64,000 nt of DNA, from the NCBI GenBank assembly GCA_041601615.1, contig JBFIHX010000003.1, positions 282,007-346,006 of the forward strand, given 5' to 3'. The position numbers and the translations under genes were made by a program. Source of the stretch: Thermoplasmatota archaeon (GTDB taxonomy: Archaea; Thermoplasmatota; E2; JACPAO01; JAHFTW01). The notes beneath the pieces are model-generated. The model was not told the origin of the DNA. It made no database searches and saw nothing but the letters and a program-made list of their open reading frames with translations. Positions 12,969 through 52,564 of the stretch are shown in pieces. The first letter of the stretch is position 1, and every line of letters starts with the position of its first letter.

Positions 12969-13051
12969 TAGCTCTTTCTCCCGTACACGCGCCCACCGGA
13001 CCCAAACAGACAGGCAAAGCGGTCAAATAGGGGCGCTATGTGGGCCGCAAC

Positions 13052-31335: not shown

Positions 31336-32169
31336 TTATGCGCCAGCCTTGGCGGCCTCAATCCAGCGCTTGGCGCGGCCGACACCCACGTCGGCCTTCT
31401 GGATTGCGGTCTTGCGTCCGGCTTCGAGCGTGTGGATTCGTGCCACGAGGTCCTCGGCATTCTGTGCTGCTAGGTCCTTGGGGCTGGTGATGCCAGCGCG
31501 CACGAGGAGTTCGGCGAACTGCGGTCCAATGCCCGAAAGCTGCATGAGTGCACCCATCGCTTGCCACTGACGGCCCAGTTCTTCCGTGACATCGGCGAAC
31601 TTGGCGATGTCCTTGAGGGGGGCCTTGATCAATTGCGGGATGGTGATGATGCCGTTGGCGTTGAGGCGGCTTGCGAACTTCTCACCGATGCCTTCGATGA
31701 TGATGACGTGTTGTTTTTCCTCGCCTGCATCGAACTTGATGTGCACGGGTGGCCGGTCGATGTACTTGATGACCTCGACGGGCTTTTCCACGATTTTCTC
31801 CACGACGCGGATCTTTTCGACCGGTTTTTCCACGACCTTTTCGACGACGCGGACCGTCTCCACGGGCTTGTCGACGTATTCGACGCGCGTCACCGGCTTC
31901 TCGACTGTTTGGTCGCGGATGATGCGGCCGGGGAACGCCTTGTGGCGGCCAACGAGGAAAATCAGCGTGAACACCACGAGGGCGATTAGGGAGCCGAGCA
32001 CTAGCCACTTGAGGCGGGATTCCCACCAAAGGACGTCTGCGACAGCGAGGCAGAAGATGCTGACTGCGGAGATGATGAAGATCCAGTACAGGCTCCTGCG
32101 TTCCTGGATGGCCACGTCCCAGCCTCCGTGTGTTCCGGTGTAGGGTCCTGCTTCTAGGGTCTTGTTCAT
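31336..32169 (-). CDS. 2-TM protein with VEK(P/V) repeats and DUF4332-like HhH domain
   Basis: IEGIGEKFA and [12 protein letters not shown]; ATGA overlap with the upstream gene. Confidence 0.85.
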
Positions 32170-33425
32170 AGGGTCCACCTTCGGGTGAGGGCGAGGATGC
32201 TGACGAGCGCAGCGGTTGCGCCGAGGCCGCCAGCGGCGGGAAGATAGTCGACCGAGCCAAGGAGGCTGTTGTCGGCTTTGGTAGATGGGCTTGGACTGCC
32301 GCCGTCCCCGGGGCCGCCCGTGCCAGTTCCGTTGCCCGCGCCGCCGGGGGGCGTCGTGGGGGTCGTGGTTCCGGAGCCAGGGTCGTTGGGGTCCAGCGGG
32401 TCGGTGCCGGCGGTCACTTCGTCGCCGTCGTCGTGGCCGTCACCATCGGTGTCGGGGTCCAGCGGGTCCGTGCCGCGATCTACTTCGTCGCCATCGAGGA
32501 GGCCGTCTCCGTCTGTATCCGGATTCAGCGGATCGGTGCCTTCGGTCGCCTCGTCGCCGTCCGACAAGCCGTCCGCGTCCGTGTCCGGGTTGTTCGGGTC
32601 TGTGCCTGCGTCCTGCTCTTGCAGGTTGCTGCTGCCGTCGCCGTCCGGGTCGTCGTCGGCACCTTGGGTGAGGTTGCCAAAGTGTGTGATTTCCCAACTG
32701 TCCAGGAGGCCGTCGTTGTCGGAGTCGAGTGGAACCTCAAAGCCCGTGGTCATCCAGAACGGAACGTCCGTCGAAGCGGTATCGGTGGTGGCAAGGGCCA
32801 CGCCCGAAGCAATGCCGGCCACCAGTTCCTCCGTGCGCGCCTCGGCGCCAAGCCAGCTCGTGGACACAAACAGATCAGGGCCAATGTCTGCATCGAGGGC
32901 GGCGCCAGTGGCGGTGACCACCAAGTCGCCAAGTTCGGCATCGGTTTCGGTCGACGCAACCAGAACGCCATCGAGGTAGACTTCCACGAAGCTGTCAAAG
33001 TAACCGTAGACGAGTCCAGCCATTTGCAGCTCAAACTGGTACACGAATTCCACCACAAGGTCCGCGACGCCTTCAGGCTCAATGGGGTCCACGATCGCAC
33101 GCGCCGAAATCAGCGTATCACCACTCAGAACAGACACTCCAATGAGGCTGGATTCTGCGACCGTAACACCCAGTTGCAATCGTTCGCAGTCGTCCCCGGC
33201 GGTCCCGATGCGCACTTGCAGCAAGTCGAGGGCGCCGTTGAGGGTGATGGCGGGGGAGACGAGGAACGCGTCACCTTCTGGATCTTCGATCCAAATGTCC
33301 GCCGGGATGCAAGTCGTTTCCTGTGCCTGAATAGCGGGCACCAACAGGAAAGCGACCAAAAGCCACCCCAGTGGTAGAACTAGGTTTTGGTGAGCCACGG
33401 CTCCAATGGGGCCACGTTCATACAA
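32166..33425 (-). CDS. Secreted, C-terminally anchored DxDxDG-repeat protein (start may be 33398)
   Basis: Signal peptide, GTDPL.PDTDGDG repeats, Gly/Pro linker, TM followed by RR. Confidence 0.85.
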
Positions 33426-37066: not shown

Positions 37067-39121
37067 GTGGCGTTTCGCGTCGTCAGCCCCTTCGAGCCCG
37101 CAGGCGACCAAGGGCCGGCCATCGATTCCATCGTCAACGGCATCCAGCGCGGGCTCCGCTACCAGACGCTCCAAGGCGTCACAGGTGTCGGCAAGACCTA
37201 CATCATGGCCAAGACCATCGAGCGGGTCCAAAAACCGACACTGATCATCTGCCACAACAAAACCCTCGCCGCCCAACTCTACGAAGAAATGAAGGCGTTC
37301 TTCCCAGACAACGCCGTCGAATACTTCGTCAGCTACTACGACTACTACCAACCCGAAGCCTACGTCCCCCAATCGGACACCTACATCGCCAAGGAATCCG
37401 ACGTCAACAAAGAGATCGAAAAACTACGCCACGCCGCCACGGTCTCGCTCATGACCCGCGACGACGTCATCGTGGTCGCCTCCGTCTCCTGCATCTACGG
37501 CCTCGGCTCCCCCCAGGACTACAAGGAACAACACCTCCTCGTCCACAAAGGCCAGGATCTGGAACGCAAAGCCCTCACCGGCCGCCTCGTCGACATCTAC
37601 TACGAACGCAACGACGCCGATCTGAAACCCGGCACCTTCCGCGTCCGAGGCGACGTGGTGGACATCCTGCCACCTGGCGACGAACACCCCCTGCGCATCG
37701 AACTCTGGGGCGACGAAGTGGATGCCGTCAAGCGCGTCCACCTCGTCACCGGCGAAACGATGCACGACTACGAGAGCCTCACCATCTTCCCCGCCAAGCA
37801 CTGGGTCATCCCCGACGACCAAATGCAAGCGGCCATCCAACGCATCCGCACCCAACTCGACGCCCGCCTCTTCGAGCTACGATCCCAGCAAAAAATCCTC
37901 GAAGCCGCCCGCCTCGAACAACGCACCCGCTTCGACATGGAAATGCTGCAAGAAGTGGGCTTCTGCTCAGGCATCGAAAACTACAGCCAACCGCTCTCGG
38001 GCCGCGCCGCCGGCGACCCAGGCTGGTGTCTGCTCGACTACTTCCCCGAAGACTGGCTCTGCATCATGGACGAGTCCCACGTCTCCGTGCCCCAAGTGGG
38101 CGGCATGTACAAAGGCGACCGCGTCCGCAAAGAAACCCTCATCGACTGGGGCTTCCGCCTCCCCTCCGCCCTCGACAACAGGCCCCTCAAATTCCCCGAA
38201 TTCGAACGCAAAGTGCCCCGCTTCGTCTTCACAACAGCCACCCCAGGCCCCTTCGAGCGCGACCACGAACAGAACCACGTCGAAGCGGTCGTGCGCCCCA
38301 CCGGCCTCGTTGACCCGCCCGTGGAAGTACGCCCCATCACCGGCCAAGTAGACGACCTCTACGGAGAGATCCTCAAAACCACGGCCCGCGGCGAGCGCGT
38401 GCTCATCACAACGCTCACCAAGAAAATGGCCGAAGAGCTGACGAAGTACTACGACGGACTCGGGCTCAAAGTCACCTACCTCCACAGCGACATCGATACC
38501 CTCGAGCGCATCATCATCCTCGAAAAGCTGCGCAAAGGCGAATTCGACATCCTCGTCGGCATCAACCTCCTGCGCGAAGGCCTGGATTTGCCCGAGGTGT
38601 CCTTGGTGGCGATCTTCGACGCCGACAAAATTGGCTTCCTGCGCAGCGCCACCTCGCTCATTCAAACCATCGGCCGCGCCAGCCGCAACAGCAACGGCCG
38701 CGTCATCATGTACGCCGACCGCGAAAGCGACGCCATGAAAATCGCCCTCGAAGAAACCGCCCGCCGCCGCGAAAAGCAGCTTGCCTACAACAAAGAACAC
38801 GGCATCACCCCCACCACCGTCGTGCGTAGCATCAAAGGCATGGAAATCGAAGGTGTGCGCGTCGGCGCCAAGAAAGAAACCCTCACCGTTGCCAGCGCCA
38901 AGGACCTCAGCAAATCGGACCTCGACAAACTCGTTGCAGAACTGGAACGACAAATGCAGGAAGCCGCCAAGGGCTGGGACTTCGAGCGCGCCGCGTTGTT
39001 GCGCGATGAAGTCATTGAACTGAAGTCGCGGGGAGCAAAGCCGGATGAGCCCAGCGAACGGCAGAAGAAAGGCAAGGAAGCGGTTGAAGGGCGGGTTGGG
39101 AAACGGAAGGCGAGTGGGTGA
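37067..39121 (+). CDS. uvrB: Excinuclease ABC subunit B
   Basis: GVTGVGKT, HNKTLAAQL, YYDYYQPEAY, DESH, GINLLREGLD, C-terminal UVR domain. Confidence 0.98.
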   Translation: MAFRVVSPFEPAGDQGPAIDSIVNGIQRGLRYQTLQGVTGVGKTYIMAKTIERVQKPTLIICHNKTLAAQLYEEMKAFFPDNAVEYFVSYYDYYQPEAYVPQSDTYIAKESDVNKEIEKLRHAATVSLMTRDDVIVVASVSCIYGLGSPQDYKEQHLLVHKGQDLERKALTGRLVDIYYERNDADLKPGTFRVRGDVVDILPPGDEHPLRIELWGDEVDAVKRVHLVTGETMHDYESLTIFPAKHWVIPDDQMQAAIQRIRTQLDARLFELRSQQKILEAARLEQRTRFDMEMLQEVGFCSGIENYSQPLSGRAAGDPGWCLLDYFPEDWLCIMDESHVSVPQVGGMYKGDRVRKETLIDWGFRLPSALDNRPLKFPEFERKVPRFVFTTATPGPFERDHEQNHVEAVVRPTGLVDPPVEVRPITGQVDDLYGEILKTTARGERVLITTLTKKMAEELTKYYDGLGLKVTYLHSDIDTLERIIILEKLRKGEFDILVGINLLREGLDLPEVSLVAIFDADKIGFLRSATSLIQTIGRASRNSNGRVIMYADRESDAMKIALEETARRREKQLAYNKEHGITPTTVVRSIKGMEIEGVRVGAKKETLTVASAKDLSKSDLDKLVAELERQMQEAAKGWDFERAALLRDEVIELKSRGAKPDEPSERQKKGKEAVEGRVGKRKASG

Positions 39122-39706
39122 GTGGGCTAGAGTATTGGCGCCCCTGCAAACTACAACGAATTAATTCATTATTTAGACAAAGGATTGAATTGAAGATTCT
39201 AATATAGTGCAATATTGGTGTCTCAGCACATATAATCATGGGGTGTGGTGGGTTAACCATATGTTTCTATCTAATTTTTGTGAATGCAGGTCAAAAAACA
39301 TAAACACTTATGTTGTCAATTATAACCCTCCATTTAATAAACACATGGGTCTCATGTAAAGTAAATCATAAATAATAAAGCTTTTCAATTATATTATCGC
39401 ATTAATCATTAGATATTCATGCGTGGTGGCAATATTTACTTAAGCTGAGCAATTTGGTTCATTGCACGCAAAGTATTAGTGGGACCCTCTTGATTCTGAC
39501 GCAGAGTGGAATCTCCAGGCCTAGTAACTGGGGCATGTTTGATTTCATAGCTACCAGATAGGTGGTAATATGCATTCTACAATAATAAAGCCATATCGCG
39601 ATCAATATAATTGCAAAGCTCTCAATACAGAAATACAATTAAGGCCATCGCTAAATATGAGACTTATTGTCCCACCTGCTCATATATTTTCCATGGAGTA
39701 TTTAAT

Positions 39707-42700
39707 ATGATACCTATTTTAGTTTACAAGCGTCCTCCACACCTGGGCTCTCGTGCATTGTTCATGGTCGCACTCCTTGTTGTTTCGGCATTGTTTTCCT
39801 TCCCGGCCATCCAGGCTGCGGGTACGTCAAGCTCCCTGGTCGGCTACTGGCCCATGGAAGAAACATCTGGGGCCGTGATTGCAGATGTCTCGGGCTTGGA
39901 TAACGATGGGTCCCTCACTATTACGGGCAGTACAGGTGCCATCTCGGGGGCGTCATGGGTAGATGGGGTCGAAGGAAATGCGCTTTCCTTTGATGGCGAC
40001 GACAGCATTACCGTTTCTGATCATAATAATTTTGATTTAACTGACTACTCAATATCACTGTGGATAAAGATGAATGACGTTGGCGCCTGCAACTACCATG
40101 GATTAGTGACGCATGGGGGGGCAGTAGATTATATAAACTATCAAGTATATATTGACTGTGATTGGGTAACATTAAAATCTGATGATGCTGCAGGGAACCA
40201 AAAAAAGTATTTCTCATCATTCAAGCCGGCCGCTGGCAAATGGGAGCACATTATGTGGACTTTTGAAGCGAATAAAGAAATTAATTTTTATGCAAATGGT
40301 CAGCTTTGGAACACTTGGGCCATCAGTCACTCGCCGTACCAATCAAATCAAGCAATTTTTCTCGGAAAAGGCGTGTACTGGGCGCCCCCGATGCGAGGCG
40401 CTATGGATGAAATTAGAATCTATCATCGGGCCCTTTCTGAAGCAGAGGCTATGGAAGAATTTGTTGGGGTGCCTTCGGGACATGGCGTGGTCGCCGAGTG
40501 GAATTTTGATGAGGGATCTGGATCAGAAGTCTATGATAAGCATGTGTGGCAAAAGGGGCGATATGGGGGTGGTGTCAATCTTGATGGATCAGACGAGTAC
40601 ATCAAGGTGGCTAGGTCCAGTTCCATTGCTCCTGATGACACATTTACCATTATGGCATGGATTCGATCCGATTCCAATATTATAGGACACATAATTAGCT
40701 GGGGGGATAATTCTAACGGTTTACGGCGATCATTGCTAGCATGGAATGGGGGGTCGGGCCCTGATCAAAAGCTCTACTTTAGTGGCCATGGGTCGGCGTC
40801 AAATCTTGATAGCGGATTCACAATCAATGATGGGGCTTGGCACCACCTTGCAATCACCAGGGATTCATCCGGAGTCGTACGAACGTACATGGATGGCGTA
40901 GCAGGAAATTCGGGAACTCCCGCACTTTCTGCATATACTGGAAATGATATTCTCATAGGGGCCAATCCGGCGTATGGAGAAAATTTTAAAGGATCTATAG
41001 ATGATGCCCGCATATATAATAAAACGCTTTCAAATAATGATATTGAAGCCATCATGTGGAATCAAATTGGTGCGCCTCAAACGCTCACTGCTTCAGCAGG
41101 GCCGGGCTCTCGAACCATCAGTCTGGCGTGGTCTGCCCCCGCCGATATTGGGACGGGCTCCGCGGCTGCATACGAGATTCACCGGTCTCATCAAACGGGT
41201 GGGCCCTACGCCTACGTCGGAACCACCGCGTCGACCACGTATCTTGACTCCAACCTCTACAGCCAACCGTACTACTATGTGGTCAAGGCCATCAATGGGC
41301 AGGGCACGGGCTCAGCTTCGAACCAAGCAAACGCCAGCCCGGCCGGCGCCCCTTCCTCACCGAACGATGGATTTGACCCCTCCAAATATGTGCCCGAAGC
41401 CCTCACTGGAAACACTCCGTTTGGTGGCGCGGCCCTCAAAAGCCCCTGCGCCTGCCAAGGTGCCCCGAACAGCGTCCACTTGCCCATGGGGGAATTTGTT
41501 GCGGATTTCCCGCTGCTTCATATTGAAAATGACCGCGGCTCGGATTTTGAATTCACTTTGAACCATCGAACCATCGCCAACCCGGATGGCAACAAATCAC
41601 TTGCCTGGGGCTGGGACGCGTCCTGGTTCCGCAGCCTCGAAGCTGATGGTTCCAACTATCTCTACCATTCGGGCAATGGTCACGCCCTGACCTTTACGCC
41701 CTTGAGTGGGGGCCAGTATGCGGGTCCTGCGGGGTCCTACGCAAAACTTGTCCCCGTCTCCGGAGGATTTGAGCTCCATGATCGGGCAGGCACTATCGGG
41801 GTGTTTTCGGCGAGCGAATCCTACCGTCTGACCAAAACCCTGGATGAAGCGGGCAATGAATGGTCGCTACAGTACCACAGTGATGGCTCGCTCTATCGCA
41901 TCGTGGATCCACACAACCGCATAATTACGTTGAGTTATCTTTCTGGCGATAAAGTGGCATCCAATCCGTTCTTTGACCTCCATGGCCGACCCCTTCTAGA
42001 GTCGATCACTGATTTCTCTGGGCGCCGTGCCGAGATCGGATACGACCATGCAACTGGAAACATCAAGACGATCACCACCACGGGCTCCGCCTTCGGCGAG
42101 CCGTTCGAAACGCGGTTTGGTTACGATGATTTTGGCATTATCAAAATTTGGGATAATGAGGGCCAAGAATATCTAAGAAACCACTTCGATCGGCATGGGC
42201 GAGTCGTTGAGCAGGAGCTCCTTGACGGTGTCGGAACCACCCAATACCTTCGTTTTGATTATGATTACAACGGGCGAACAACCGTGACAACCGACGCCAA
42301 CGGCAATGAAGTGGAATGGGATTTCGACCACAGCGGAACGCGTCGCATCGTTCCAAGCGCCCGGACTGAATTCACGCGGAATCTTCGAGAATCTGGATTC
42401 GAGGACCCTGTACAATACGTAACCGAGTACGCTTACAATGCCCAGGATGAAGTGACGAAAGTCACATTCCCCAAAGGCAACTCCGTCAGCTACGGCTACG
42501 ACTCCACCACAGACATCTTTGCCAAGGGCAACCTGCGCACCGTGGTCCAAGACCCTGGCCCTGTCCGCGCCCTGCGCGACGATGGGTCCTATCAACCACA
42601 GATTGAAATTGAATATGTGTATGACTCTGCGTACAATGTAGTGACAAAAATCATTGAGTCACGTGGCAAGGATGCGACGTATGAGCCGCAAAATGGCGGC

Positions 42701-45700
42701 AATCAGAGTGCAGCGCGATACACGACTCGAATCTTCTATGATTTCGAAGAGACCAGCAGCCTCGATTACAACGGTGATGGGGTCACGAACAGCACGGACC
42801 GACGCCCTGTGAAGATCGTATACCCCACCATCCATCCGACGGGAAGCAGCATCCACACTGCGTTCTCATCCGCCTACAGTGGACAGGCTCGGGCCGAGTA
42901 CTTTGAGTGGAACAGTGCGGGGCAGCTCGTGGCACACGTGGACGCGGAGGGGAATCGAGAAAATCGGACCTATTTTGCTGCCAGCGGAGCCCATTCGAAT
43001 CCCTTTGACCGGGAAGGGTACCTTGCATCCGTTGTCGTCGATCCCGAAGGGCTAGCCCTAGCGTCATCATTCGAGTACAGCCCGTATGGCGCAATCATGG
43101 GGATCACGGACCCCAAAGGCAACGAGCGCTTGTTTGAACTCGATGCGCGTGGCCGGATCATTCAGGAAACTGGTCCTGGCTCCACAGCATACCGGACCAA
43201 ATGGGCGTACAACAACAACGATGAACTTGTCCAACTGGAACGCGAAACAGATGCTTCCACTGATACGTACTCTACTCGCGAGTATGCTTACGATGGCCTG
43301 GGGCGTCTCGTAGAAGAGAAGGTCCATGCCACACGCTCCAGCTTCATTGTCGGGGCACTTACAGGTCATCCCACGCCCACGTCGGACACCTTCAGCATCC
43401 ACTATGCCTATGACGGCAATGGGCAGCTCATCCAACGTGTGAACGGCGCTGGCGACGAAGAGACATGGACGTACGACGAACGTGGACTTCTGCTTTCTCA
43501 GAGTGTCGGCGAAGGAAATGGCACCTACACATACGATGGGAATGGAAATTTGCTTGCGCACCAGGACCCGACCGGTTCCGTGACTTGGTTCCAGCACGAT
43601 GGATTCGACCGACCAGCGGCCCGGGTCGATTCCTTGGGCATGCTCAGTATGACCCATTACGACCCGGCAGGAAACATCGTACGCGAACGAGGCTATGCTC
43701 CAGCGCTCTTTTCCGGTTCACCCTCGGGCCGTCCATCCAGCCTTGACTTTGATCGCTTCGATCAAAGCGCAACCTCTCTTCAGTATGATCGACTGTACAG
43801 ATACGACGAGGCGAACCAGGGCTACAGGGCGGATGAGCGCCACTTCTTTTACCAGTCTGGTCATACCCGCGCTTCCACCGTCAACACGTTGTCGCCGTCT
43901 GATGAATGGGATACCAGCCTGCGCGAATACGACGGCATCGGACAAGTCGTTCGGACCGTGAACGACAACAAACACGCGACCACGCATGAGTATGATGCCG
44001 CTCAACGTCTCAAGAAATCCACGGATGTCCTCTCGAACTCGATCAAATTTAACTATGACAAGAACAGCAACGTGCTATCGGTCACGGAAGTCGAACAGTT
44101 GGCAAGCGGCTCCCCAGCAGTCGCATATGTGACTGGCTACAGCTACGATGAAGAAAATCGGCTCACGAAAATCACCAACCCAGACACTACAGAAAAGTCG
44201 TTCAACTATGATGGTCGAGACAACCTTGTCAAGACTATCGATGAACTTGGCAACGTCGTACACACATACTTTGACTATGCAGATCGACCCTGGGTCGTAG
44301 CGCGTGAATTGCGCGTCGGTGGTACTGGCGCTGGAAACATTACGAATTTGATCGAGACCGTGACTCTCTGGGATGGGGCCCATCGGCCTCAACACCAATG
44401 CGACGGAAACGGAGAATGCACCTCATACGACTATGCCGGGGCCTCAGGTCTGCTTCGCAAGGAGACCCACCCGGATGGCATCGTCGTTCAACACAGGTAT
44501 GACGCAGACGGTAGCAGAATTCAGACCACCTTCAACAATGGAAAGCAGCTTGCGATGTCCTACGACGAGCTGGAGCGCTTGGTTCGCCTCGATGTGGACG
44601 TTGATCAGGCAATCATCGGCACTACTCAACAGACGTTTGCGTATGATCCCATGGGACGCCTTGTCCGCACGACTGACAATGGAATCCTGAATGCCGGAAT
44701 TCTTTCCAGGTCCAACGCAATCACAACCACGCAGGAGTATGACTCTTTGGGTATGCTTGTTGGTGAATCGCAAAAAGGCCAGAATATTTCCCATGTGCGG
44801 GATGGTGTCGGATCAATCATCAAGAGTATCTATCCGAATGGTCGTGCAATTTTTAGGACCTACGACAACCTGGAACGATTGAACCATGTCTGGGACAGCA
44901 AAGGCTTCATCGCCGATCATGCCTACGATGGTGGGCATTTGGTGGAAAAATCATTTGGAAGCTCTACTGTGCCCGTTCTCACCTCCAGCTACGAGTTTGA
45001 CGACATGCGACGCATCACCCAATTGGAGCACAGTAAGAGCGGCGGCTCCCTGTTTGCCGGCCAAAAAGTCCGGTTCAACGACGCCGGGGCGCCGACCGCG
45101 CTGGAATTCCTTCCCAATTCCGTTTCAGGCTTGGACCAATTGCTCGGGTTGGATTCTGGGTACCGGACAACCTCCTGGAAGAGTGGAAATCTCAATGCAG
45201 GCACGACAAGCATCTCTGGGGGGACTTCGCACTCGTGGGGTTTGGATGCCGCCAACAACTGGAATTCCTTCAACACAGGATCATCCTGTTCGAGAAAACA
45301 TGGTTCCGGAAATCAGATTCTGACCCAGACTTGCGGGGGGACAACGGCGTCCTTCAACCATGACCTTAATGGGAATATCATCCTTGATGATGAGTTCCAG
45401 TATTATTATGATTTCTTGAACCGCCTCGTCCGAGTGGATAATAAAATATCAGGCGAGCCAGTTATGGCCTTTGGTTATGATGCTCTTGGCAGGCGAGTTC
45501 TCAAGGTAGTTGCTGAGGATCTGGAGGCGCTATCGCCTGGCGGCGTAGAAGTCGGCGTGGACACTTTCTTTACGTTTAGTGGGCAGCACGTGATTCAAGA
45601 ATCGCAGCCATTCGAACCTGGTTATTTTCCGTCGTTGGCTGCGTTTGCTCCTGTTCGTGTGATTCGGCAGTGGACGCATGGGTCTGCGGTCGATGAGGTT

Positions 45701-46861
45701 TTGTCGATGACTTTGGATGAAAATGATGGGGTCTTGGATTCATCGGATCGGCGATTCTTCTACCTGTATGATGCGCTTGGGAGTGTTCAGGGTTTGGTGG
45801 ATGAGTCGGGAAAATTGGTGGAGGGCTATTCGTATGATGCGTATGGTCGTCCAATGGTTCGGACTCCCGGAACAAGCGGAGGCGTGCTTTGGACCAGTGC
45901 AGATACCGTCACAGTAGGCGGAGCAGGTAGTCTCGACAATCCGTTCCTGTTTACGGGTCGGTACTGGGACTCCGAGATCAGCAAGTACCACTACCGCGCA
46001 AGGACGTACGACCCCGAACTGGGGCGGTTCATGTCCAGGGATCCTATTGGAAATTGGGGTGACTCCGGAAACCTAGGAAACGGATATGCGTACGTCGGCA
46101 ACAGTCCCTGGCAGTACACGGATCCGTATGGGTTGTGTCCGTCGTGCATTGGTGCGGTTGTTGGTGCTGCGGTTGGGGCGTTGTGGCAATTTGGCTCCTA
46201 TTCCTATCGGGTTGCCTCTACGGATGCAACATGGGATAATCAGGCGCTTTCGGATGATCTTAAATTTGGACTCATTGCGGGTGCCGTCATTGGAGCCACG
46301 GGTGGTCTCGGGGCGGGTGTTACTGGGACTGTCGCAGCCGGCGGTGCCAGTGCTGGCGCAGTGTTTGGGACGACCGTGGCTGTTGGGGCAGCGGAAGGGA
46401 TTGTAGGCCAAGCCACCTTTGATTATCTTAACGACGGCGCAATCAATGACGGTTTGCAGGCTTATGCGGGCGCAGCAGCATTCGGGGCTGTTACAGCGGG
46501 GGCAGGGTATGGGGTGGGAGCGCTTTGGAAAGCTAAAGGGGGCGCGCGCCTTGCCAATTTAAAAACTGTCGACTCTTTTGAAACGAGTGATAATCTCATA
46601 AAAGTTGGCGGTCGTTCATTTCAACTTACGGGGCATGCATCAGAACGCATGATTGAGCGCGGTATATCGCGGGATTCACTGGTAGAAGTTTTAAATAACC
46701 AACCATTCGTATATAAACATGGTGGAACCACAAAATACGGTTATTTTGACCCATCAACCAACATATTTGCAGCCACGGCAGATGGAAAAATCGCGACAGT
46801 TATACAGGGTGCACGAGTAAGGCCATATGTAGAAAATCTAGGGTGGACTCCATGGAAATGA
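39707..46861 (+). CDS. Secreted RHS/YD-repeat polymorphic toxin: signal peptide, 2x LamG, FN3, DUF6531-like, YD repeats, RHS core, Gly-rich linker, DUF4258-like toxin
   Basis: LVGYWPMEE/MDEIRIY (LamG), ISLAWSAP/YYYVVKA (FN3), many YD..G repeats, RTYDPELGRFMSRDP, YTDPYGL, TGHASERMIERGI. Confidence 0.93.
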   Translation: MIPILVYKRPPHLGSRALFMVALLVVSALFSFPAIQAAGTSSSLVGYWPMEETSGAVIADVSGLDNDGSLTITGSTGAISGASWVDGVEGNALSFDGDDSITVSDHNNFDLTDYSISLWIKMNDVGACNYHGLVTHGGAVDYINYQVYIDCDWVTLKSDDAAGNQKKYFSSFKPAAGKWEHIMWTFEANKEINFYANGQLWNTWAISHSPYQSNQAIFLGKGVYWAPPMRGAMDEIRIYHRALSEAEAMEEFVGVPSGHGVVAEWNFDEGSGSEVYDKHVWQKGRYGGGVNLDGSDEYIKVARSSSIAPDDTFTIMAWIRSDSNIIGHIISWGDNSNGLRRSLLAWNGGSGPDQKLYFSGHGSASNLDSGFTINDGAWHHLAITRDSSGVVRTYMDGVAGNSGTPALSAYTGNDILIGANPAYGENFKGSIDDARIYNKTLSNNDIEAIMWNQIGAPQTLTASAGPGSRTISLAWSAPADIGTGSAAAYEIHRSHQTGGPYAYVGTTASTTYLDSNLYSQPYYYVVKAINGQGTGSASNQANASPAGAPSSPNDGFDPSKYVPEALTGNTPFGGAALKSPCACQGAPNSVHLPMGEFVADFPLLHIENDRGSDFEFTLNHRTIANPDGNKSLAWGWDASWFRSLEADGSNYLYHSGNGHALTFTPLSGGQYAGPAGSYAKLVPVSGGFELHDRAGTIGVFSASESYRLTKTLDEAGNEWSLQYHSDGSLYRIVDPHNRIITLSYLSGDKVASNPFFDLHGRPLLESITDFSGRRAEIGYDHATGNIKTITTTGSAFGEPFETRFGYDDFGIIKIWDNEGQEYLRNHFDRHGRVVEQELLDGVGTTQYLRFDYDYNGRTTVTTDANGNEVEWDFDHSGTRRIVPSARTEFTRNLRESGFEDPVQYVTEYAYNAQDEVTKVTFPKGNSVSYGYDSTTDIFAKGNLRTVVQDPGPVRALRDDGSYQPQIEIEYVYDSAYNVVTKIIESRGKDATYEPQNGGNQSAARYTTRIFYDFEETSSLDYNGDGVTNSTDRRPVKIVYPTIHPTGSSIHTAFSSAYSGQARAEYFEWNSAGQLVAHVDAEGNRENRTYFAASGAHSNPFDREGYLASVVVDPEGLALASSFEYSPYGAIMGITDPKGNERLFELDARGRIIQETGPGSTAYRTKWAYNNNDELVQLERETDASTDTYSTREYAYDGLGRLVEEKVHATRSSFIVGALTGHPTPTSDTFSIHYAYDGNGQLIQRVNGAGDEETWTYDERGLLLSQSVGEGNGTYTYDGNGNLLAHQDPTGSVTWFQHDGFDRPAARVDSLGMLSMTHYDPAGNIVRERGYAPALFSGSPSGRPSSLDFDRFDQSATSLQYDRLYRYDEANQGYRADERHFFYQSGHTRASTVNTLSPSDEWDTSLREYDGIGQVVRTVNDNKHATTHEYDAAQRLKKSTDVLSNSIKFNYDKNSNVLSVTEVEQLASGSPAVAYVTGYSYDEENRLTKITNPDTTEKSFNYDGRDNLVKTIDELGNVVHTYFDYADRPWVVARELRVGGTGAGNITNLIETVTLWDGAHRPQHQCDGNGECTSYDYAGASGLLRKETHPDGIVVQHRYDADGSRIQTTFNNGKQLAMSYDELERLVRLDVDVDQAIIGTTQQTFAYDPMGRLVRTTDNGILNAGILSRSNAITTTQEYDSLGMLVGESQKGQNISHVRDGVGSIIKSIYPNGRAIFRTYDNLERLNHVWDSKGFIADHAYDGGHLVEKSFGSSTVPVLTSSYEFDDMRRITQLEHSKSGGSLFAGQKVRFNDAGAPTALEFLPNSVSGLDQLLGLDSGYRTTSWKSGNLNAGTTSISGGTSHSWGLDAANNWNSFNTGSSCSRKHGSGNQILTQTCGGTTASFNHDLNGNIILDDEFQYYYDFLNRLVRVDNKISGEPVMAFGYDALGRRVLKVVAEDLEALSPGGVEVGVDTFFTFSGQHVIQESQPFEPGYFPSLAAFAPVRVIRQWTHGSAVDEVLSMTLDENDGVLDSSDRRFFYLYDALGSVQGLVDESGKLVEGYSYDAYGRPMVRTPGTSGGVLWTSADTVTVGGAGSLDNPFLFTGRYWDSEISKYHYRARTYDPELGRFMSRDPIGNWGDSGNLGNGYAYVGNSPWQYTDPYGLCPSCIGAVVGAAVGALWQFGSYSYRVASTDATWDNQALSDDLKFGLIAGAVIGATGGLGAGVTGTVAAGGASAGAVFGTTVAVGAAEGIVGQATFDYLNDGAINDGLQAYAGAAAFGAVTAGAGYGVGALWKAKGGARLANLKTVDSFETSDNLIKVGGRSFQLTGHASERMIERGISRDSLVEVLNNQPFVYKHGGTTKYGYFDPSTNIFAATADGKIATVIQGARVRPYVENLGWTPWK

Positions 46862-47070
46862 CATACGACTCAGAAGCTGATGCAGCATCTATTCTATTTA
46901 CTCCTATTTTTCCCGGCATTTCAAGGAAATCGTTTCCCATTGACATCAATGGTCGGGCGTTTACCTTTGATTTCAATGACGCTGGGCAGCTTGTGTCGAT
47001 TGAAATATTAGATGCTAGCACAATTTTGCCAGGGTTAAAGAAGATGGGGGCGGACGCAGAGAACAAATAA
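46852..47070 (+). CDS. DUF2283-like immunity/antitoxin protein
   Basis: M.MTYDSEADAASI...DFNDAGQLVSIEILDAS; overlaps the toxin stop. Confidence 0.85.
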   Translation: MEMTYDSEADAASILFTPIFPGISRKSFPIDINGRAFTFDFNDAGQLVSIEILDASTILPGLKKMGADAENK

Positions 47071-47280
47071 ACCTTACATGGCCCCCACTGGAAAAAATTT
47101 AGTAGCATATTCCAATATGCGGTTAAACTTAAATAAATGAACATTAAGACACGCATTGACGGCATAAATATTGGTGTACTGTGGCAGTAGCTATAGGCGT
47201 TTATCTAGGTAAATTCAGTGAATCAAAAAAATACATTGGGTTGTGGCGATTCCGCTTCTACAAAGGGTCCGGGTTTCTAT

Positions 47281-48185
47281 GACAATCCATTCCTATTTAC
47301 GGGTCGGTTCTGGGATGCGCACATCGAGAAATACACTACCGTGCCCGCACCTACGACCTCGAAATGGGTCGCTTCCTGAGCCGTGATCCAATCGGTGTCT
47401 GGGGTGATTCAGGCAATCTTGGCAATCCGTATGCGTATGTCGGGAATCAGCCGTGGCAGTACACGGATCCGTATGGGTTGTGTCCCACGTGCCTTGCGGG
47501 TGCTGTCGCGGGACTGGTCGCAGGCGTGGCCATTTACGGCGTCGCCGTCGCTACAACGGACGCTGATTTTTCTTGGAAACATCTTGGGCTTGCTGCGGCC
47601 ATCGGCACCGCCGGAGGAGCACTGATAGGCACCGGTGTCGGCATCGGAGCCGGGGCCGGAATGTTTTCCAGCATTGGCGGTGCGGTCGTAGCGGGTGCGG
47701 GCGAAGGAATCCTTACCAGTGTAACTCTTGACACACTTGATGATGCAGCTGTCAATGAGGGTGTGGGAGCATATGCTGCTTCAGCGGCGACGGGGGCCAT
47801 TACAAACGGGGCATTTGCTTCTTTGGGCAAGGGTGTATCGGCGTGGAAAGGCACGCGAGGAAACTCAATCGATGAAATTTGGCCCCCTAACCGAGGCTTT
47901 GCGCACGAGCCTGTGGATCATATCCTTTTACCCGGGGTACGCGTTAATCGGTATGGTTCAGAGGCAGGTACATTTGTCTCCCCGCAAGGCGTGTCATTCT
48001 CTATGCGTGCTCTCCCCGATGCCAGCTTGGCCCGACCGTTTACAACATACGTGGTAGAGGAATCAATCCGAGTTCGGAGTGGGTTATCAGCACCATGGTT
48101 TGGCCAAGAAGGGTTAGGTATCCAATATGAGTTATCTCGACCAGTGAAAGATTTGATCCAAGATGGATTTTTGAGGAGAATATAG
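47281..48185 (+). pseudogene. Orphan RHS-core cassette with TNT-like (NAD+ glycohydrolase) toxin domain
   Basis: Core homology starts at 47281 with a 1-nt deletion near 47335; WPPNRGF, NRYGS..GTF.SP, RALP, PWFGQ.G.G.QY. Confidence 0.85.
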
Positions 48186-48186
48186 C

Positions 48187-48456
48187 ATGAATAGAAAAAA
48201 ATTAGCAAAAATTCTCCTATCTGAGGGATTTCCTCCGTATTCTTTTGAATTTGGGAATTTATGGCCTCTTGACGATGCATTCACCATCAGGGAGGGTCTG
48301 CATGGGTGGCATGTCAAGTATGCCGAAAGGGGGCAGATAAGGAATTGCGGCACTTTCGATTCCGAAAACGATGCTTGTAATTTTTTATACATGGAAATGG
48401 TGGATGCATGGCCAGAAGAACTTAGGAAAAATGTTAAAAATAACAAAAAAACATAG
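48187..48456 (+). CDS. Immunity protein for the TNT-like cassette (Imm59-like)
   Basis: Immediately downstream; W.V.YAERG....FDSE.DAC motif. Confidence 0.75.
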   Translation: MNRKKLAKILLSEGFPPYSFEFGNLWPLDDAFTIREGLHGWHVKYAERGQIRNCGTFDSENDACNFLYMEMVDAWPEELRKNVKNNKKT

Positions 48457-48620
48457 CCCTAAAAATAGCATAGGGCCCCCCATTATTGCCACTATTTCTA
48501 GCATTAGTAAATTTATTATTTTTCAATAATAAAATAAGCCGACGTAAAGAATGATAAATTACTTAGCGCATTTATCTACCACAAAATCGAAATCATAAAA
48601 CTTGTTTTTATTGCAATCCC

Positions 48621-49557
48621 CTGGGACTCCGAGATCAGCAAGTACCACTACCGTGCCCGGACGTATGATCCGGAGCTAGGTCGGTTCATGTCCCGAGATC
48701 CTATTGGAAACTGGGGAGACTCCGGAAACCTAGGAAACGGATATGCGTACGTCGGCAACAGTCCCTGGCAGTACACGGATCCGTACGGGTTGTGTCCCTC
48801 ATGTTTCGGCGCAGTAGTAGGTGCCGCAGCTGGTGCGTTGTGGCAGTTTGGATCCTATTCCTATCGGGTTGCCTCTACGGATGCAACATGGGATAATCAG
48901 GCGCTTTCTGACGATCTTAAATTTGGGCTTCTTGCGGGTGCTGTCATTGGATCCACTGGTGGTCTTGGGGCCAGTATTACTGGCGCCGTAACCGCCGGCG
49001 GTGCTGGAGCGGGGACGGTGTTTGGCGCAACGCTGGCGGTAGGGGCCGCCGAGGGAGTCGTGGGCCAAGCCGCATTTGATTTCCTGGATGATGGTTCCTT
49101 CAATGATGGCTTGCAGGCTTACGCAGGGGCCGCGGCGTTTGGTGCTGCTACCGCCGGGGCAGGATATGGGGCAGGGGCACTTTGGAAGGCAGGGCGAGGG
49201 GCGCATGGGGGTGTGACCAATGGGGCCAGCGAGACCATTGATAACTTTGGCAGAGGGGCAATATCCAGTCCATACACCCGCTCCGGAACACTGACCAATG
49301 ATGCCGTTGCGAATTCATTTGAGATTGAACTAAAGGGGGGCATACGCAATTCTCGGGTCGTTCAACAACTGACTTCAGATGGAAGTTCCATCGACGATTG
49401 GGGCAAATTCGCGACCCGCCAATGGCATGATTCGCCGAGTGGGTCATTCCAGCCGCACTTCTACCGGAACAAAGTGTCCGGACAAGTGAACTACGAAATC
49501 GACTATAAATCCGTGCTGCATCCGAAAAGCATGTTCCCGCTCGGAGGCGGAAGATGA
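48621..49557 (+). pseudogene. Orphan RHS-core cassette with unassigned toxin domain
   Basis: 48621-49190 closely matches the main RHS core and linker, then a different tip (LTSDGS.I.DWGKF.T...HFY.N..SG.V.Y..DYK). Confidence 0.85.
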
Positions 49558-49886
49558 AAGTCAAGGCGGGGCCTCTTGCGAAGGAGGGCTGGTTCGCGGA
49601 AGCCGAGTACGTGGTGTTGGGCATAACCATGCACCCGAAATGGGGATGCCGTTTCATCGTTGAGGAGAGTCCCGATAATCCGGGCCTCCATCCATACGGA
49701 GAAGTCGTGCTTACCGATGGACGTGTGCCAACTTTGTGGCACGCCGCCATTGACGAGGATGGGTCTTTCTCCCTACAGCCGGAGGAATGGACTGCCGAGT
49801 TCTGGCAGGCATACGAAAATGGTGACCCGGCTGCATGGGAAGTCTATCGAAAGGTCAAACAGCGCCTTGAAAAGGAGTCCGCATAG
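49554..49886 (+). CDS. Putative immunity protein for orphan cassette 2
   Basis: ATGA overlap with the toxin; small acidic protein with EYVVLGI and FWQAYENGDP. Confidence 0.75.
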   Translation: MKVKAGPLAKEGWFAEAEYVVLGITMHPKWGCRFIVEESPDNPGLHPYGEVVLTDGRVPTLWHAAIDEDGSFSLQPEEWTAEFWQAYENGDPAAWEVYRKVKQRLEKESA

Positions 49887-50322
49887 AATGAGGTAATCCC
49901 AGTGCCCCAAACCGCATAGTGGAGAACCCGTTTGGCAACGCTTCGAGCCCAGTCGTCGAGATCGCCGTCGTTCACGACGGCAGGGGGTGCACCAGCGGCG
50001 TGAATCACCTGGAAGGCATTACGAACCCCATGCATATCTGCGATGTGAACAACGATTCTTGCCACCGCGTCTCATCCCCTGTTCGAGCGACGAACTCGAT
50101 CAAATCCTTGCCTTCGAAAGCATCTCGTTGAGCGTGAAGGTAGGATTGCAGGGACATTGACGCGCCGCCGAATTCCATTGGCAAGGTACAGAATTACATT
50201 TATAGGGTCTCGATGGCGCCAACAACGGGGACTCTTTGACTCGCACCGGAACGACATTCACGCAAGCGCACGGGGCTGGTAGCCTCGTCAACGCATACGT
50301 TGGAAACCAATCGAGGCAAAAA

Positions 50323-50493
50323 ATCAGCAAATACCACTACCGTGCCCGCACGTATGATCCGGAGCTAGGTCGGGTCATGTCCCGAGATCCTATTGGAAAC
50401 TGGGGAGACTCCGGAAACCTAGGCAACGGGTATGCGTACGTCTGCAACAGTCCTTGTCAGTACACGAGTCTTCTTGGGGGTCGGGTGAGGTGA
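50323..50493 (+). pseudogene. RHS-core remnant without a toxin tip
   Basis: ISKYHYRARTYDPELGRVMSRDP...YAYVCNSPCQYT; homology stops just before DPYG. Confidence 0.8.
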
Positions 50494-50758
50494 TTGATTC
50501 TATGGCCTCTCTCCGAGGCTTTCATTCGCAAACTGGCGAGAGTAAGGTTTGATTCATTTCTGCCACCAACATTCACGCGCAATCCGTAGTCCGCAGGGTA
50601 AAGCATGCTGGTGTCCTCGACCCACATCATTTCAACAACCCAACGCCCATTTCCCCTGGAAAACCGCCGTCAAAACAACGGAATGGCCAATATCCTCATA
50701 AAGGACGAGCCGAGGTCATTGCTGAGTCGGTGGGCGTTGCCCATCTATCGGTGAGCAC

Positions 50759-52564
50759 ATGATCCTAGGACTGAGCACAAAGACAGCAGCCTCCATTGGC
50801 GTGGCGGCGACCCTCATGGTGGTCGCCATCACCAGCGCCGTCGTCATGGCAGGCGACGAAGAATTCGACGCCATCCAAGCCCCGCGCTGGCAGGCCGGAT
50901 ACGCATTCGCCTACGACGTCACCGGGCAAATCGAGTACCTGCTCGACGTTCCCGGAGAAGCCAGCGGCGGCGACTCGTTCTCCTTCGGGCCCGTTCCAAT
51001 TGAAAAAGAGATTCTGTCCACCAAGTTTGACCTCGACGGCAAGCCGCTCTATGTGGGCGCTGCCACCTTCCCGCTTGGCCACTTCCTGGCCCAAGGCATG
51101 GACTTCGAGTTCCCCGACCTCGCCGTCTACCCCACCGCCGACCGCCAAAGCGACCTGTCCCCCGTCGGCGTGCAAATCAGCAGCGACGGCGACGGCCTCG
51201 AATTTGGCCCCGACGCCCCAATCACCTACCTTGACTTCCCGCTCACCCATGGCAAGCGCTGGAGCACCACCATGAAAGTCGCCGACTTGTTCGGAGAAGC
51301 CGATTTCCTAGAAGGCACCGAATACATGGACCTCGACGAAGTGCTCGTCCAGGGCGAAGTTGGATCCATGCAGAAGCTCGACTTGCCCATCGGAACCGTC
51401 GACGCCGTCCGCGTGGACATCAGCTACACTCCCATTGGCCTCCAGAAGGCCGTCGCCCAGGCCCGCAGCGACGCCGAGAAGTTCGGCGTCGACGTGGAGC
51501 GCCTCAACGTCCAACTCGGCGTGCACGAAATTGCGTACTACGCTCCCGAGTACCAAAGCATCGTCAAGGACCAATTCGTCGTGCGCGCCCTCGTAGACGC
51601 CGCCCTCGACTACAACGGCGACCACTGGGAGGTCTACACCGAGGCCACCGGCACCGCCCTCGTCGAACTGACCGGCGCACGCCTCCTAAAGGGCCCCGAA
51701 CGCAGCACCAGCGAAATCCTGCGCATCCTGCGCGGCGACGCCCCGGTTGCCGACGCCCACGGCGAAATCATTCCCGAAAGCATCTACGACGTCTTCATCG
51801 ACAGCGACTCCTCCCGCGTCAACGCCGCCAAGAGCCCCGTCGTGCATTTCTCCAGCGACCTGAGCGGCGTCGACAGCCTCCCAAGCGAACACAAACTCGT
51901 CTACAAAATGGTCCGGCCCGATGGCAGCACCTACAAGAGCGCAGCCGGCAAAGCGACCTGGGACGTCACCGTAGACGAACCCGGCAGCTACACCGTCATC
52001 CTCCAAGCCATTGCTGGCGACGGCCGCGTCTTCTCACAAGACTCCATGCCGCTCGTGGCCAACTGGCACCAAACCATCTCCGGTGGATGCCCCGTCGTCA
52101 CAAGCAGCACCATGATGCCCTGCGACCGCGTCGGTTTGCCCGTCAATCTCGGAGTCGATGCGCTCTCGGTTGCCGCCTACGTCAACGGCACCACCCTCGC
52201 AAACGGCCGCCTCACCGTCAGCAGCCCCTCCGACTCGTTCAGTGGAAGCCGCGAAGGCGACGGCGCCTACCGCATTGTCCTCGAAGACTTCGATCACCGC
52301 GACCTCGGTCGCAACTGGAACGGGGCCTACAGCAGCTTTGGCTTCGGCGAGAACGTCGACTACGTCATCGACATCCTGTATGGCGCCCCCGACACCCGCG
52401 TCCACGACGACGTCGGCGAAGACGGCGGCACCGGCGGACAACTTGCCATGCAAGACCCCCGAAGCATGAGCAGCTTTGGCGCTCCCCTTGGATCGTTCTT
52501 GGAGCAGCTGAGTGAGGGCAAGAAACCCTTTTTGCAGGCCGAACTCGAAGGGCTGCTGTCCTGA
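50759..52564 (+). CDS. Secreted or membrane-anchored acidic protein, hypothetical (PKD-like segment)
   Basis: N-terminal hydrophobic helix; APRWQAG, LDFPL..GK.W, DEPGSYTVIL. Confidence 0.75.
   Translation: MILGLSTKTAASIGVAATLMVVAITSAVVMAGDEEFDAIQAPRWQAGYAFAYDVTGQIEYLLDVPGEASGGDSFSFGPVPIEKEILSTKFDLDGKPLYVGAATFPLGHFLAQGMDFEFPDLAVYPTADRQSDLSPVGVQISSDGDGLEFGPDAPITYLDFPLTHGKRWSTTMKVADLFGEADFLEGTEYMDLDEVLVQGEVGSMQKLDLPIGTVDAVRVDISYTPIGLQKAVAQARSDAEKFGVDVERLNVQLGVHEIAYYAPEYQSIVKDQFVVRALVDAALDYNGDHWEVYTEATGTALVELTGARLLKGPERSTSEILRILRGDAPVADAHGEIIPESIYDVFIDSDSSRVNAAKSPVVHFSSDLSGVDSLPSEHKLVYKMVRPDGSTYKSAAGKATWDVTVDEPGSYTVILQAIAGDGRVFSQDSMPLVANWHQTISGGCPVVTSSTMMPCDRVGLPVNLGVDALSVAAYVNGTTLANGRLTVSSPSDSFSGSREGDGAYRIVLEDFDHRDLGRNWNGAYSSFGFGENVDYVIDILYGAPDTRVHDDVGEDGGTGGQLAMQDPRSMSSFGAPLGSFLEQLSEGKKPFLQAELEGLLS

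Follow-up and report, generated by a model that had tools for sequence, protein, structure and literature searches.

WapA of Bacillus subtilis is a Sec-exported Rhs toxin of Gram-positive bacteria, and for archaea a survey by Makarova et al. (mBio, 2019) is cited (PMC8416519; bioRxiv 10.64898/2026.07.27.741052) as predicting polymorphic toxin systems. The present study concerns an rhs gene and the genes downstream of it in a stretch of 64,000 nucleotides (the window) from the draft genome of a Thermoplasmatota archaeon, corresponding to positions 282007-346006 of contig C3 (JBFIHX010000003.1). We consider it probable that these genes make up a complete polymorphic toxin locus of rhs type, which the archaeon has gained by horizontal transfer and which now lies, as an insertion, between uvrB and a native gene. 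For an rhs locus its form is that of the textbook, while its host is unusual; such loci are well known from bacteria and rare in archaea. What is added here is the documentation of an insertion, four head types within one clade of Thermoplasmatota and a hydrophobic segment in the constant part of the cargo.

When comparing the locus to that of WapA, several features are the same: a signal peptide (predicted here), no type VI secretion system (T6SS), a YD shell, a C-terminal toxin of RNase type (putative here) and, downstream, a gene for immunity (predicted here). Repeats that bind the cell wall keep WapA on the wall, while none were found in the rhs protein by Pfam scan; the latter has a head of two LamG domains and an FN3 domain, in a host without a peptidoglycan wall of that kind.

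Polymorphic toxin systems of archaea were predicted in 2012 (Zhang et al., PMC3482391), and none had been characterised experimentally as of 2021 (PMC8416519). As is read or predicted for the present locus, these systems comprise a long secreted RHS/YD protein whose C-terminal toxin is variable and of nuclease type, a neighbouring gene for immunity and, further downstream, cassettes homologous to the C-terminal region, and they are rare, patchily distributed in archaea and probably of bacterial origin (PMC3482391). What differs is that an empty site, continuity at the level of the reads and a clade with four types of head are documented here.

Among proteins of solved structure, the best sequence matches of the shell are Rhs effectors of T6SSs (Tse5, 8cp6; RhsA/Rhs1, 7q97; RhsP, 8h8a; Tse15, 8uy4) together with the mosquito protein SGS1 (8fjp). 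The T6SS effectors have the shell, the two-Asp core protease, cleavage after DPxGL and an encapsulated toxin in common with what is read or predicted here, but they carry PAAR/VgrG-binding N-termini and need the T6SS (PMC10684867), whereas the rhs protein has no such domain. A first-pass annotation of the window had noticed the lack of PAAR and VgrG delivery genes, and this could be extended to the whole genome, since none of the PAAR, sheath and VgrG families (PF05488, PF04984, PF05954) were found in its 2.79 Mb (93% complete). An assignment to the T6SS-associated effectors was rejected on these two grounds. The TcB-TcC part of Tc (ABC) toxins was likewise rejected, as no SpvB/TcdB mid domains were found in the rhs protein at E ≤ 0.01; the search did not extend to TcA homologues in the genome.

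SGS1 and SGS4 of mosquitoes (8fjp and 9on3) also combine, in a single chain, receptor domains on the outside (propellers, CBM, lectin-CRD), a shell of Rhs/YD repeats, an autoprotease site of R/D/D type, helices within the shell that are predicted to be transmembrane and a terminal toxin-like domain (PMC9935623). They differ in being eukaryotic with another biology, in lacking a classical signal peptide and in having the receptor domains inserted in the shell and not at the N-terminus (PMC9935623), and they have no immunity gene or orphan cassettes. Their similarity to the rhs protein outside the core is marginal; in searches against PDB sequences SGS1 matches residues 1838-2232 and SGS4 aligns weakly through the first two post-core hydrophobic helices (E 0.008). 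In the two-domain CdiA-CT toxins, as is suggested for the cargo here, the C-terminal region consists of a common N-terminal entry part and an exchangeable toxin part (PMC11630599). They differ in using type V secretion and in that their entry domains, which show no sequence similarity to the hydrophobic segment described below, use specific bacterial inner-membrane proteins (PMC11630599).

Insertion site and archaeal host

The genome consists of 30 contigs (2.79 Mb, 0.28% contamination). In the window, uvrB (37067-39121) and a native gene encoding 601 amino acids (50759-52564) are separated by a region of 35-59% GC, compared to 61-63% in the flanks:

39122..50629, no strand: low-GC inserted island, ~11.5 kb, between uvrB and the native 601-aa gene
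39122..39706, no strand: AT-rich upstream intergenic region, 35% GC, presumed promoter region

In a genome of the same genus (G001:C188) and in another of the same family (G005:C77) uvrB and the homologue of the 601-aa gene are adjacent and co-oriented. DNA homology to G001 ends at position 39067 of the window and restarts at 50630, with 68 bp in between in G001. As the site is empty in both relatives, about 11.5 kb has therefore entered the native backbone between two genes.

The GC content of the island, 10 or more points below that of the genome, the draft state of the latter and the fact that RHS proteins are overwhelmingly bacterial (Zhang 2012, PMC3482391) could also be explained by an artefact of assembly or binning, in which a bacterial rhs block was mis-joined to archaeal DNA at uvrB. 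The stretch is contained in four sequencing runs from one study labelled marine metagenome, and the assembly may derive from one of these (X1). Contigs in three of the runs (X1 38693-45993, X2 38427-39621 and X3 38693-40091) span the uvrB junction, an X1 contig covering 50394-52500 spans the right junction of the island, and the summed depth is even over flanks and island (~25 in X1, 3-7 in X2 and X3). The continuity at uvrB, which the first-pass annotation had left to be confirmed, is thus seen in three runs, and the bacterial mis-join that it had named as grounds for refutation was not seen.

The host also appears archaeal from other evidence. A partial small subunit ribosomal RNA on contig C2 of the same bin has the archaeal model as its best match, and the window itself encodes Ribosomal_S3Ae (13040-13804, E 5.3e-69), a family known only from archaea and eukaryotes. 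The closest homologues of the rhs protein are found in three Thermoplasmatota/Thermoplasmata records, one of them a 487-kb contig, and form a clade with the window at 99% support (see below). Because the native flanks are adjacent in two relatives, the junction is bridged at even depth and the S3Ae gene lies in the window, a bacterial mis-join is very unlikely, the least probable of the alternatives weighed here.

The island flanks contain no direct repeats besides the copies of the rhs core end, and no ORF (open reading frame) for an integrase or transposase was recognised within the island. No second RHS gene was found in the genome by tblastn.

Architecture of the rhs protein

The rhs frame is open throughout 39611-46861 on the forward strand and is the sole long ORF of the region. 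Starting from the ATG at 39707 the gene (39707-46861, 7.2 kb) is intact and encodes 2384 amino acids, with the following parts:

39707..39817, + strand: predicted Sec-type signal peptide, residues 1-37, predicted cut AIQA-AG, read from the translation
39818..41056, + strand: head with two LamG domains (Laminin_G_3, ConA-like lectin fold), residues ~38-450, Pfam PF13385
41057..41341, + strand: FN3 domain, residues ~451-545, Pfam fn3; homology to archaeal relatives starts here
41342..45913, + strand: plug region and YD/RHS-repeat shell, residues 546-2069, PF05593 and TIGR01643
45914..46135, + strand: RHS-associated core with aspartyl autoprotease motif, TIGR03696, predicted cut after DPYGL2143
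46136..46531, + strand: CPSC and Gly/Ala-rich hydrophobic segment, residues 2144-2275, constant N-terminal part of the predicted cleaved fragment
46532..46861, + strand: toxin tip, residues 2276-2384 (109 aa), divergent DUF4258/Ntox49, putative RNase of BECR fold

This order of parts (signal peptide, two LamG domains, FN3, YD shell, core, CPSC linker and tip) had been proposed in the first-pass annotation, and every statement in it agreed with the results from Pfam, NCBIfam and hydropathy analysis. The N-terminus, MIPILVYKRPPHLGSRALFMVALLVVSALFSFPAIQA followed by AG, is predicted to be a Sec signal peptide, with n-, h- and c-regions judged by eye: the n-region is basic (K8, R9, R16), the core consists of 16 hydrophobic residues and the site, AIQA-AG, is AxA-like. 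In the Pfam scan of the protein Laminin_G_3 (PF13385) matches two stretches with E 1.8e-44, and the first LamG domain also matches PF07953 (35.3 bits), the lectin-like N-terminal receptor-binding domain of clostridial neurotoxins, a similarity that reflects the common ConA-like fold and nothing beyond. The match to fn3 (residues 456-542, E 5.5e-5) lies at 23.7 bits, just below the 25-bit cut-off. Among PDB sequences the head resembles an S-layer domain protein (4qvs, E 7e-7) and an arabinanase (5hon, E 1.8e-6), and the FN3 domain an Fn3-like protein (3mpc, E 2.6e-4).

For the shell the matches are to RHS_repeat (PF05593, E 5.2e-55, 183 bits with a cut-off of 22) and YD_repeat_2x (TIGR01643, E 6e-43), while the plug model DUF6531 found no match in the rhs protein. 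The core (Rhs_assc_core, TIGR03696) is located at residues 2070-2143 with 65.7 bits against a cut-off of 32.5. The equivalog of the enterobacterial Rhs element core protein (NF041261) was rejected, since its score of 95.1 bits against a cut-off of 2000 indicates a related protein of another family. The end of the core reads SRDPIG...YTDPYGL(2143), directly followed by CPSC, and R2097, R2099, D2112, D2139, P2140 and G2142 are invariant in all seven aligned homologues (alignment A1). In Tse5 both corresponding Asp residues are needed for cutting at Leu1168/Ile1169 (PMC10684867), and in SGS1 a catalytic set of one Arg and two Asp has been proposed on the basis of the structure and of mass spectrometry (PMC9935623). 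With this motif present, the core protease probably cleaves after L2143. Two of the properties by which RHS polymorphic toxins are recognised, multiple YD/RHS repeats and a core with Arg, two Asp and a DPxGL end, were found in this protein.

The composition changes along the gene. The LamG part has 46-47% GC (0.41-0.46 at third codon positions, GC3), the part from FN3 to the core 52-60% (GC3 0.58-0.68) and the toxin tip 44% (GC3 0.32), as compared to 61-63% (GC3 0.80-0.81) in uvrB and the 601-aa gene; the LamG part is therefore more AT-rich than the YD part, as had been claimed at the first reading. A GC3 of 0.32-0.68 in a host with 0.80, together with a public annotation that shortens the gene and a list of sequencing runs with no RNA among them, would also fit a silent, recently imported relic or a non-toxic surface or adhesion protein of teneurin type. 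The 7.2-kb frame is however intact with all of the protease motif and the conserved tip residues, the last catalytic Asp is present here and absent in teneurins (PMC9935623), and an immunity gene and orphan cassettes accompany the gene, leaving this explanation improbable compared to a functional toxin locus.

The protein deposited in the database for this contig (P0002, 1935 aa) starts at the internal M450 (window position 41054). The full frame is the better reading, because head and FN3 are joined without a stop codon, a signal peptide precedes the head, and head and shell are found in one ORF in the relatives. The closest relative, P0003, begins at the same Met as P0002 and may be a similarly shortened gene call; low-GC heads of such genes may be cut off systematically by gene callers.

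Relatives in Thermoplasmatota and exchange of the head

Database searches with the rhs protein gave 1127 hits, six of which are 36-56% identical over 71-81% of the query and the rest at or below ~33%. In the genome collection the closest loci are located on two contigs of a Thermoplasmatota record and on one 487-kb Thermoplasmata contig, with bacterial loci coming next (24-44% over the best segments, usually the core end alone). For two of the loci, L006 and L057 (G298, of the family to which the window's genome belongs), the tblastn figures were the same and they were taken as one locus, which puts the window's genome in a family containing a Thermoplasmata genome.

A quick maximum-likelihood tree, with midpoint root only, was made from residues 1700-2143 and 66 rows, leaving out the duplicates L057 and P0006, loci covering fewer than 240 residues and proteins covering fewer than 300, and with proteins taken from P0003-P0060. 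The window falls within a clade of nine rows (SH-aLRT 99) together with three named Thermoplasmatota rows and five metagenomic proteins, and a set of 12 rows (support 90) adds two genomes of the same family and P0010. Other RHS rows of the phylum and one Methanobacteriota row sit elsewhere, among bacteria, so that the archaeal label requires at least three changes on the RHS tree. RHS cores are rare in the phylum, being matched at E ≤ 1e-10 in 12 of 401 sampled genomes, the window's included, and in 3 of 18 genomes of the same family, all of one genus.

The nearest homologues have FN3, shell and core in common while heads and tips differ. The closest relatives are homologous from residue ~452 onward, and the invariant columns (seven sequences) run from P457, at the site of the GC jump, with one stray column, W184, upstream. 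Instead of LamG domains the relatives carry FG-GAP repeats (P0004, P0005, P0006/L005), a beta-helix (P0007) or DUF7948 with propeller repeats (L006). The suggestion, made from the difference in composition at the first reading, that the head is exchangeable is supported by this position of the homology border and by the diversity of heads. The origin of the LamG head was not found among the 401 genomes of the phylum, nor as a paralogue in its own genome; LamG matches at E ≤ 1e-5 occur in large ORFs of 104 of the 401 genomes, the best being 31% identical, and therefore no donor can be named. The two further proposals of the first reading, that LamG and FN3 bind target glycans and that the linker mediates membrane crossing, are plausible.

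In the Thermoplasmata relative (L006 17114-23389) a type I restriction-modification operon (HsdM, HsdS, HsdR) comes after the rhs gene and an ORF of 117 aa downstream of it, which suggests that this rhs gene is situated within a defence or variable region.

Predicted toxin tip and immunity protein

The tip alone matches DUF4258 (PF14076) with E 3.6e-5 and 24.4 bits, the cut-off being 25, over positions 1-53 of the 71 in the profile. An exhaustive search of representative proteins gave 244 relatives at E ≤ 1e-3, of which 21 at ≤ 1e-10, and among the 150 of these 244 matches that were listed (proteins of 69-3100 aa) the match is located at or near the C-terminus, which is the pattern of a polymorphic-toxin tip. 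An alignment of 61 rows was made from the tip and 60 hits of at most 300 aa, taken from the top 78 of the 150 listed. DUF4258 is matched at E ≤ 1e-3 by 29 of these rows, the tip included, R2318 and T2364 are invariant, and H2310, R2314, H2338, K2343 and D2348 are nearly so. The conserved residues of Ntox49 are listed as H and [KR] and the family is listed with RHS repeats and with euryarchaeota (Zhang 2012, PMC3482391); the conserved His and Arg/Lys are found in the tip. DUF4258 overlaps Ntox49 within the colicin-like BECR RNases (2026 preprint), and a DUF4258 CdiA-CT has been listed as a possible tRNase (PMC11630599), with nothing known experimentally on DUF4258 toxins (2025 review, PMC11980606).

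An AF2 model of the tip (pLDDT 85.5) shows a strand-helix-helix-four-strand layout. When compared to 48,161 chains with VIA-align, BECR toxins fill nearly all of the top 37 rows, the best being 3ao9 (Z 7.4, rmsd 2.8, 79 aligned), followed by RelE/ParE/YoeB (Z 5-6.3), CdiA-CT (Z 5.3-5.6) and colicin D (Z 5.1). It is the consistency of this list, rather than single Z values, that carries weight for the BECR fold. Weak Foldseek matches are CdiA-CT NC101 (5i4r, E 0.047), colicin E5 and colicin D. No meaningful PDB sequence match was obtained with the tip profile. A word-indexed search with the tip among proteins of 63-202 aa gave no hits. Taken together, a divergent DUF4258/Ntox49 domain of BECR fold is supported by profile and model, and the tip is a putative RNase.

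Directly after the tip, overlapping its last codons, follows

46843..47070, + strand: DUF2283 gene, predicted immunity gene, 75 aa from GTG or 72 aa from ATG at 46852, overlapping the rhs stop

The protein matches DUF2283 (PF10049) with 34.6 bits against a cut-off of 23. Modelling of the complex between the tip and the DUF2283 protein gave a score of 0.85, compared to 0.01 for the best of three controls; the mark for this score is reached by 116 of 157 solved complexes and by 2 of 215 mismatched pairs (rough counts, own alignment used). At least 69% of the contacts are common to the runs, the pLDDT of the partner is at least 84, and the modelled interface takes in H2310, R2314, R2318, H2338 and T2364, that is, the conserved His/Arg face of the tip. 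A PDB sequence search found no solved relative of either the DUF2283 protein or the tip, and since neither chain has one, a memorised complex seems unlikely. The model thereby points to the DUF2283 protein as the likely immunity protein of the tip.

Hydrophobic segment and orphan cassettes

The region downstream of the immunity gene contains three further copies of the core end, two of them with different tips, an arrangement of variable tips and orphans by which RHS toxins are also recognised:

47149..48185, + strand: orphan cassette 1, core-end remnant in another frame (47149-47334) followed by an ORF (47364-48185)
48187..48456, + strand: ORF of 89 aa immediately behind orphan 1, candidate immunity gene from its position only
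48621..49557, + strand: orphan cassette 2 (ORF 48688-49557), core end, CPSC and hydrophobic segment followed by a different 118-aa tip
49554..49886, + strand: 110-aa ORF, candidate immunity gene from its position only, overlapping the stop of orphan 2 by 4 nt
50236..50493, + strand: orphan 3, tipless core-end stub at the right edge of the island, from tblastn and DNA identity

The ORF of orphan 1 consists of a core end, CPTC, a hydrophobic segment and a tip of the NAD+ glycohydrolase family TNT (PF14021, E 2.1e-27), with a partial match to TIGR03696 and the core found by tblastn. We know of no report of a TNT-type tip in an archaeal genome, although no literature search was made. In orphan 2 the core end, CPSC and hydrophobic segment are ~90% identical in DNA to the main gene (90% over 300 nt when comparing 45964-46263 with 48621-48920), and orphan 3 is 75% identical to residues 2072-2142 by tblastn and 94% identical in DNA to the copy in orphan 2. 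No Pfam family was found at E ≤ 5 for the tip of orphan 2 or for the 89-aa and 110-aa ORFs, nor any NCBIfam match for the 89-aa ORF. For the tip of orphan 2 (49201 onward) the nearest cluster in a language-model atlas, an unnamed one, is labelled 'putative MafB' (0.93, 177 shared features), a lead only.

A contig of run X4 covers 48625-49193 at a depth of ~4 and has 12 listed differences at 48657-48717, all 12 of which equal the copy in the main gene 2657 nt upstream, with no differences from orphan 2 after 48717. It could represent a strain in which the main core end has been joined to, or has converted, orphan 2, or an assembly path between repeats.

In an alignment of the cassettes (A2), the stretch from SRDPIG to ALWK is almost the same in the main gene and orphan 2, which diverge after it, and orphan 1 keeps the layout with CPTC, hydrophobic helices, the motif A-E-G...D-x-L-D-D-x-x-x-N and a W-K end. 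Since the cassettes of the locus have it in common, the hydrophobic segment belongs, as judged from sequence, to the constant part of the cleaved fragment, outside the variable tip. It contains three moderately hydrophobic stretches (residues 2141-2160, 2185-2235 and 2249-2275) with peaks of 1.0-1.66 on the Kyte-Doolittle scale in a 19-residue window. A similar segment combined with the same tip family is found in P0123, an unrelated database protein, whereas a word-indexed search among long proteins with the whole cleaved fragment (residues 2144-2384) returned the window's own protein alone. An AF2 model of this fragment, from a 5-row alignment, draws four helices in residues 1-151 but cannot be used to argue either way on a helical membrane segment.

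The closest structural parallel is SGS1, in which ~230 residues of predicted transmembrane helices are folded within the Rhs/YD shell behind the same protease site, followed by the toxin-like domain (PMC9935623). By analogy, the segment may be a shell-stored membrane-entry part common to all cargoes of the locus, in a position like that of the entry domain of CdiA-CT. As Tse5-CT is a hydrophobic, membrane-depolarising Rhs cargo (PMC10684867) and the segment is conserved over the cassettes, it might instead be the lethal part itself, a pore former with the C-terminal domain as an accessory. Against this, the enzymatic tip differs from cassette to cassette, as does the small soluble protein encoded downstream of it, the locus has no immunity protein of membrane type and the modelled DUF2283 protein touches the conserved residues of the tip, so a pore-forming toxin is improbable compared to an entry segment with an enzymatic tip.

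The first residue after the predicted cut is a Cys, in CPSC of the main gene (46136-46147) and orphan 2 and in CPTC of orphan 1, while P0005 and P0006 have CSWKVYDC at this position. Cys-rich starts of the cargo are also found in several unrelated RHS proteins, and possible roles are a disulfide, a metal site or lipidation.

Proposed function and delivery

The following course of events can be proposed. The 2384-aa protein would be exported by Sec, as suggested by its signal peptide and by a genome in which no injection machinery is encoded. The YD repeats, from their homology to solved Rhs shells, are expected to enclose the C-terminal 241 residues in a shell, and the aspartyl protease of the core (R2097/R2099, D2112, D2139), whose motif is in place, would then cut after L2143. 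The released fragment would begin with the CPSC-led, glycine-zipper-like hydrophobic segment, present in all three full cassettes and stored within the shell, which may help the cargo to enter or cross the target membrane in analogy with mosquito SGS1, Tse5 and the entry domains of CdiA-CT. It would end with the DUF4258/Ntox49 domain, a putative BECR-fold RNase poisoning the target cytoplasm. In the producer and its kin, cytoplasmic DUF2283 protein would protect by covering the conserved H/R/H face of the tip. The LamG-LamG-FN3 head may serve as an exchangeable binding module, either for the target surface or for the producer's own envelope. The orphan cassettes would be spare tips with their own immunity genes, and recombination between the repeated copies of core end and hydrophobic segment could put them in place of the active tip.

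The target need not be a related archaeon. The protein could be a freely diffusing, self-contained weapon against bacteria or eukaryotic grazers, a one-chain analogue of the ABC toxins, with immunity serving only against leakage in the producer. No anchoring signal or injection machinery was found (Pfam scan of the protein and family searches in the genome), RNase and NADase tips hit targets common to all domains, and SGS1, the closest solved architecture, is a soluble secreted protein (PMC9935623). The immunity gene after each tip, on the other hand, is a hallmark of kin-directed systems (PMC3482391, PMC8416519), the shell already sequesters the tip during export and the clade has diversified within Thermoplasmatota; none of the three is decisive, and we regard a weapon against non-kin as rather unlikely, though it is the strongest of the alternatives to a kin-directed polymorphic toxin.

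Several points weigh against a functional polymorphic toxin locus as read here. The case for expression, export, cleavage, toxicity and immunity is made wholly in silico, the signal peptide was called by eye, and the public gene call P0002 omits it together with both LamG domains. The four runs come from one study and one of them is perhaps the source of the assembly, making their support partly non-independent. The DUF4258 score of the tip is 0.6 bits below the Pfam cut-off, the VIA Z values of 5-7.4 are, being under 8, middling by the tool's own scale, and Foldseek against PDB found nothing for the tip model at E ≤ 0.001 (best 0.047). For the hydrophobic segment no Pfam family was found at E ≤ 5 and the AF2 pLDDT is ~30, so that its role is argued by analogy. 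When surveying 101 other RHS proteins (those with a core end recognised by HMM and a post-core part of 60 residues or more), a hydropathy peak of at least 1.4 (19 residues) within the first 150 post-core residues was seen in 28, nine of which also had at least 30% Gly+Ala. Hydrophobic segments after the core are thus common among RHS proteins, and nothing in this is specific for crossing an archaeal envelope.

A wider and more tentative idea, which we hold to be possible but less probable than not being so, is that Thermoplasmatota own a diversifying lineage of single-chain RHS toxins, independent of secretion systems and modular at both ends, with swappable heads (LamG, FG-GAP, beta-helix, propeller) and a cleaved cargo made of a common membrane-entry segment and swappable enzymatic tips. 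If so, one protein would be self-sufficient to recognise another archaeon and to move an enzyme across an archaeal membrane, which would be the first tractable system for toxin delivery between archaea by a protein. The locus is a clean and complete candidate, having an intact gene, a defined cleavage motif, a small tip/immunity pair with a confident model, two further candidate pairs, a known empty site and relatives from which the exchanged parts can be read. It raises the question of how a protein toxin may enter a cytoplasm behind an archaeal envelope without an injection machine, and that of which surface structures are recognised by heads of LamG type in marine Thermoplasmatota.

Other genes in the window

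The native gene downstream of the island matches no Pfam or NCBIfam family; its 601-aa product has an N-terminal hydrophobic segment, and homologues were found in 10 of 21 related genomes searched, its own included. Elsewhere in the window two similar gene pairs, at 9081-11624 on the forward strand and at 31336-33425 on the reverse strand, each encode a protein with TSP3_bac repeats (~420-440 aa) and a DUF4332/HHH_5 protein.

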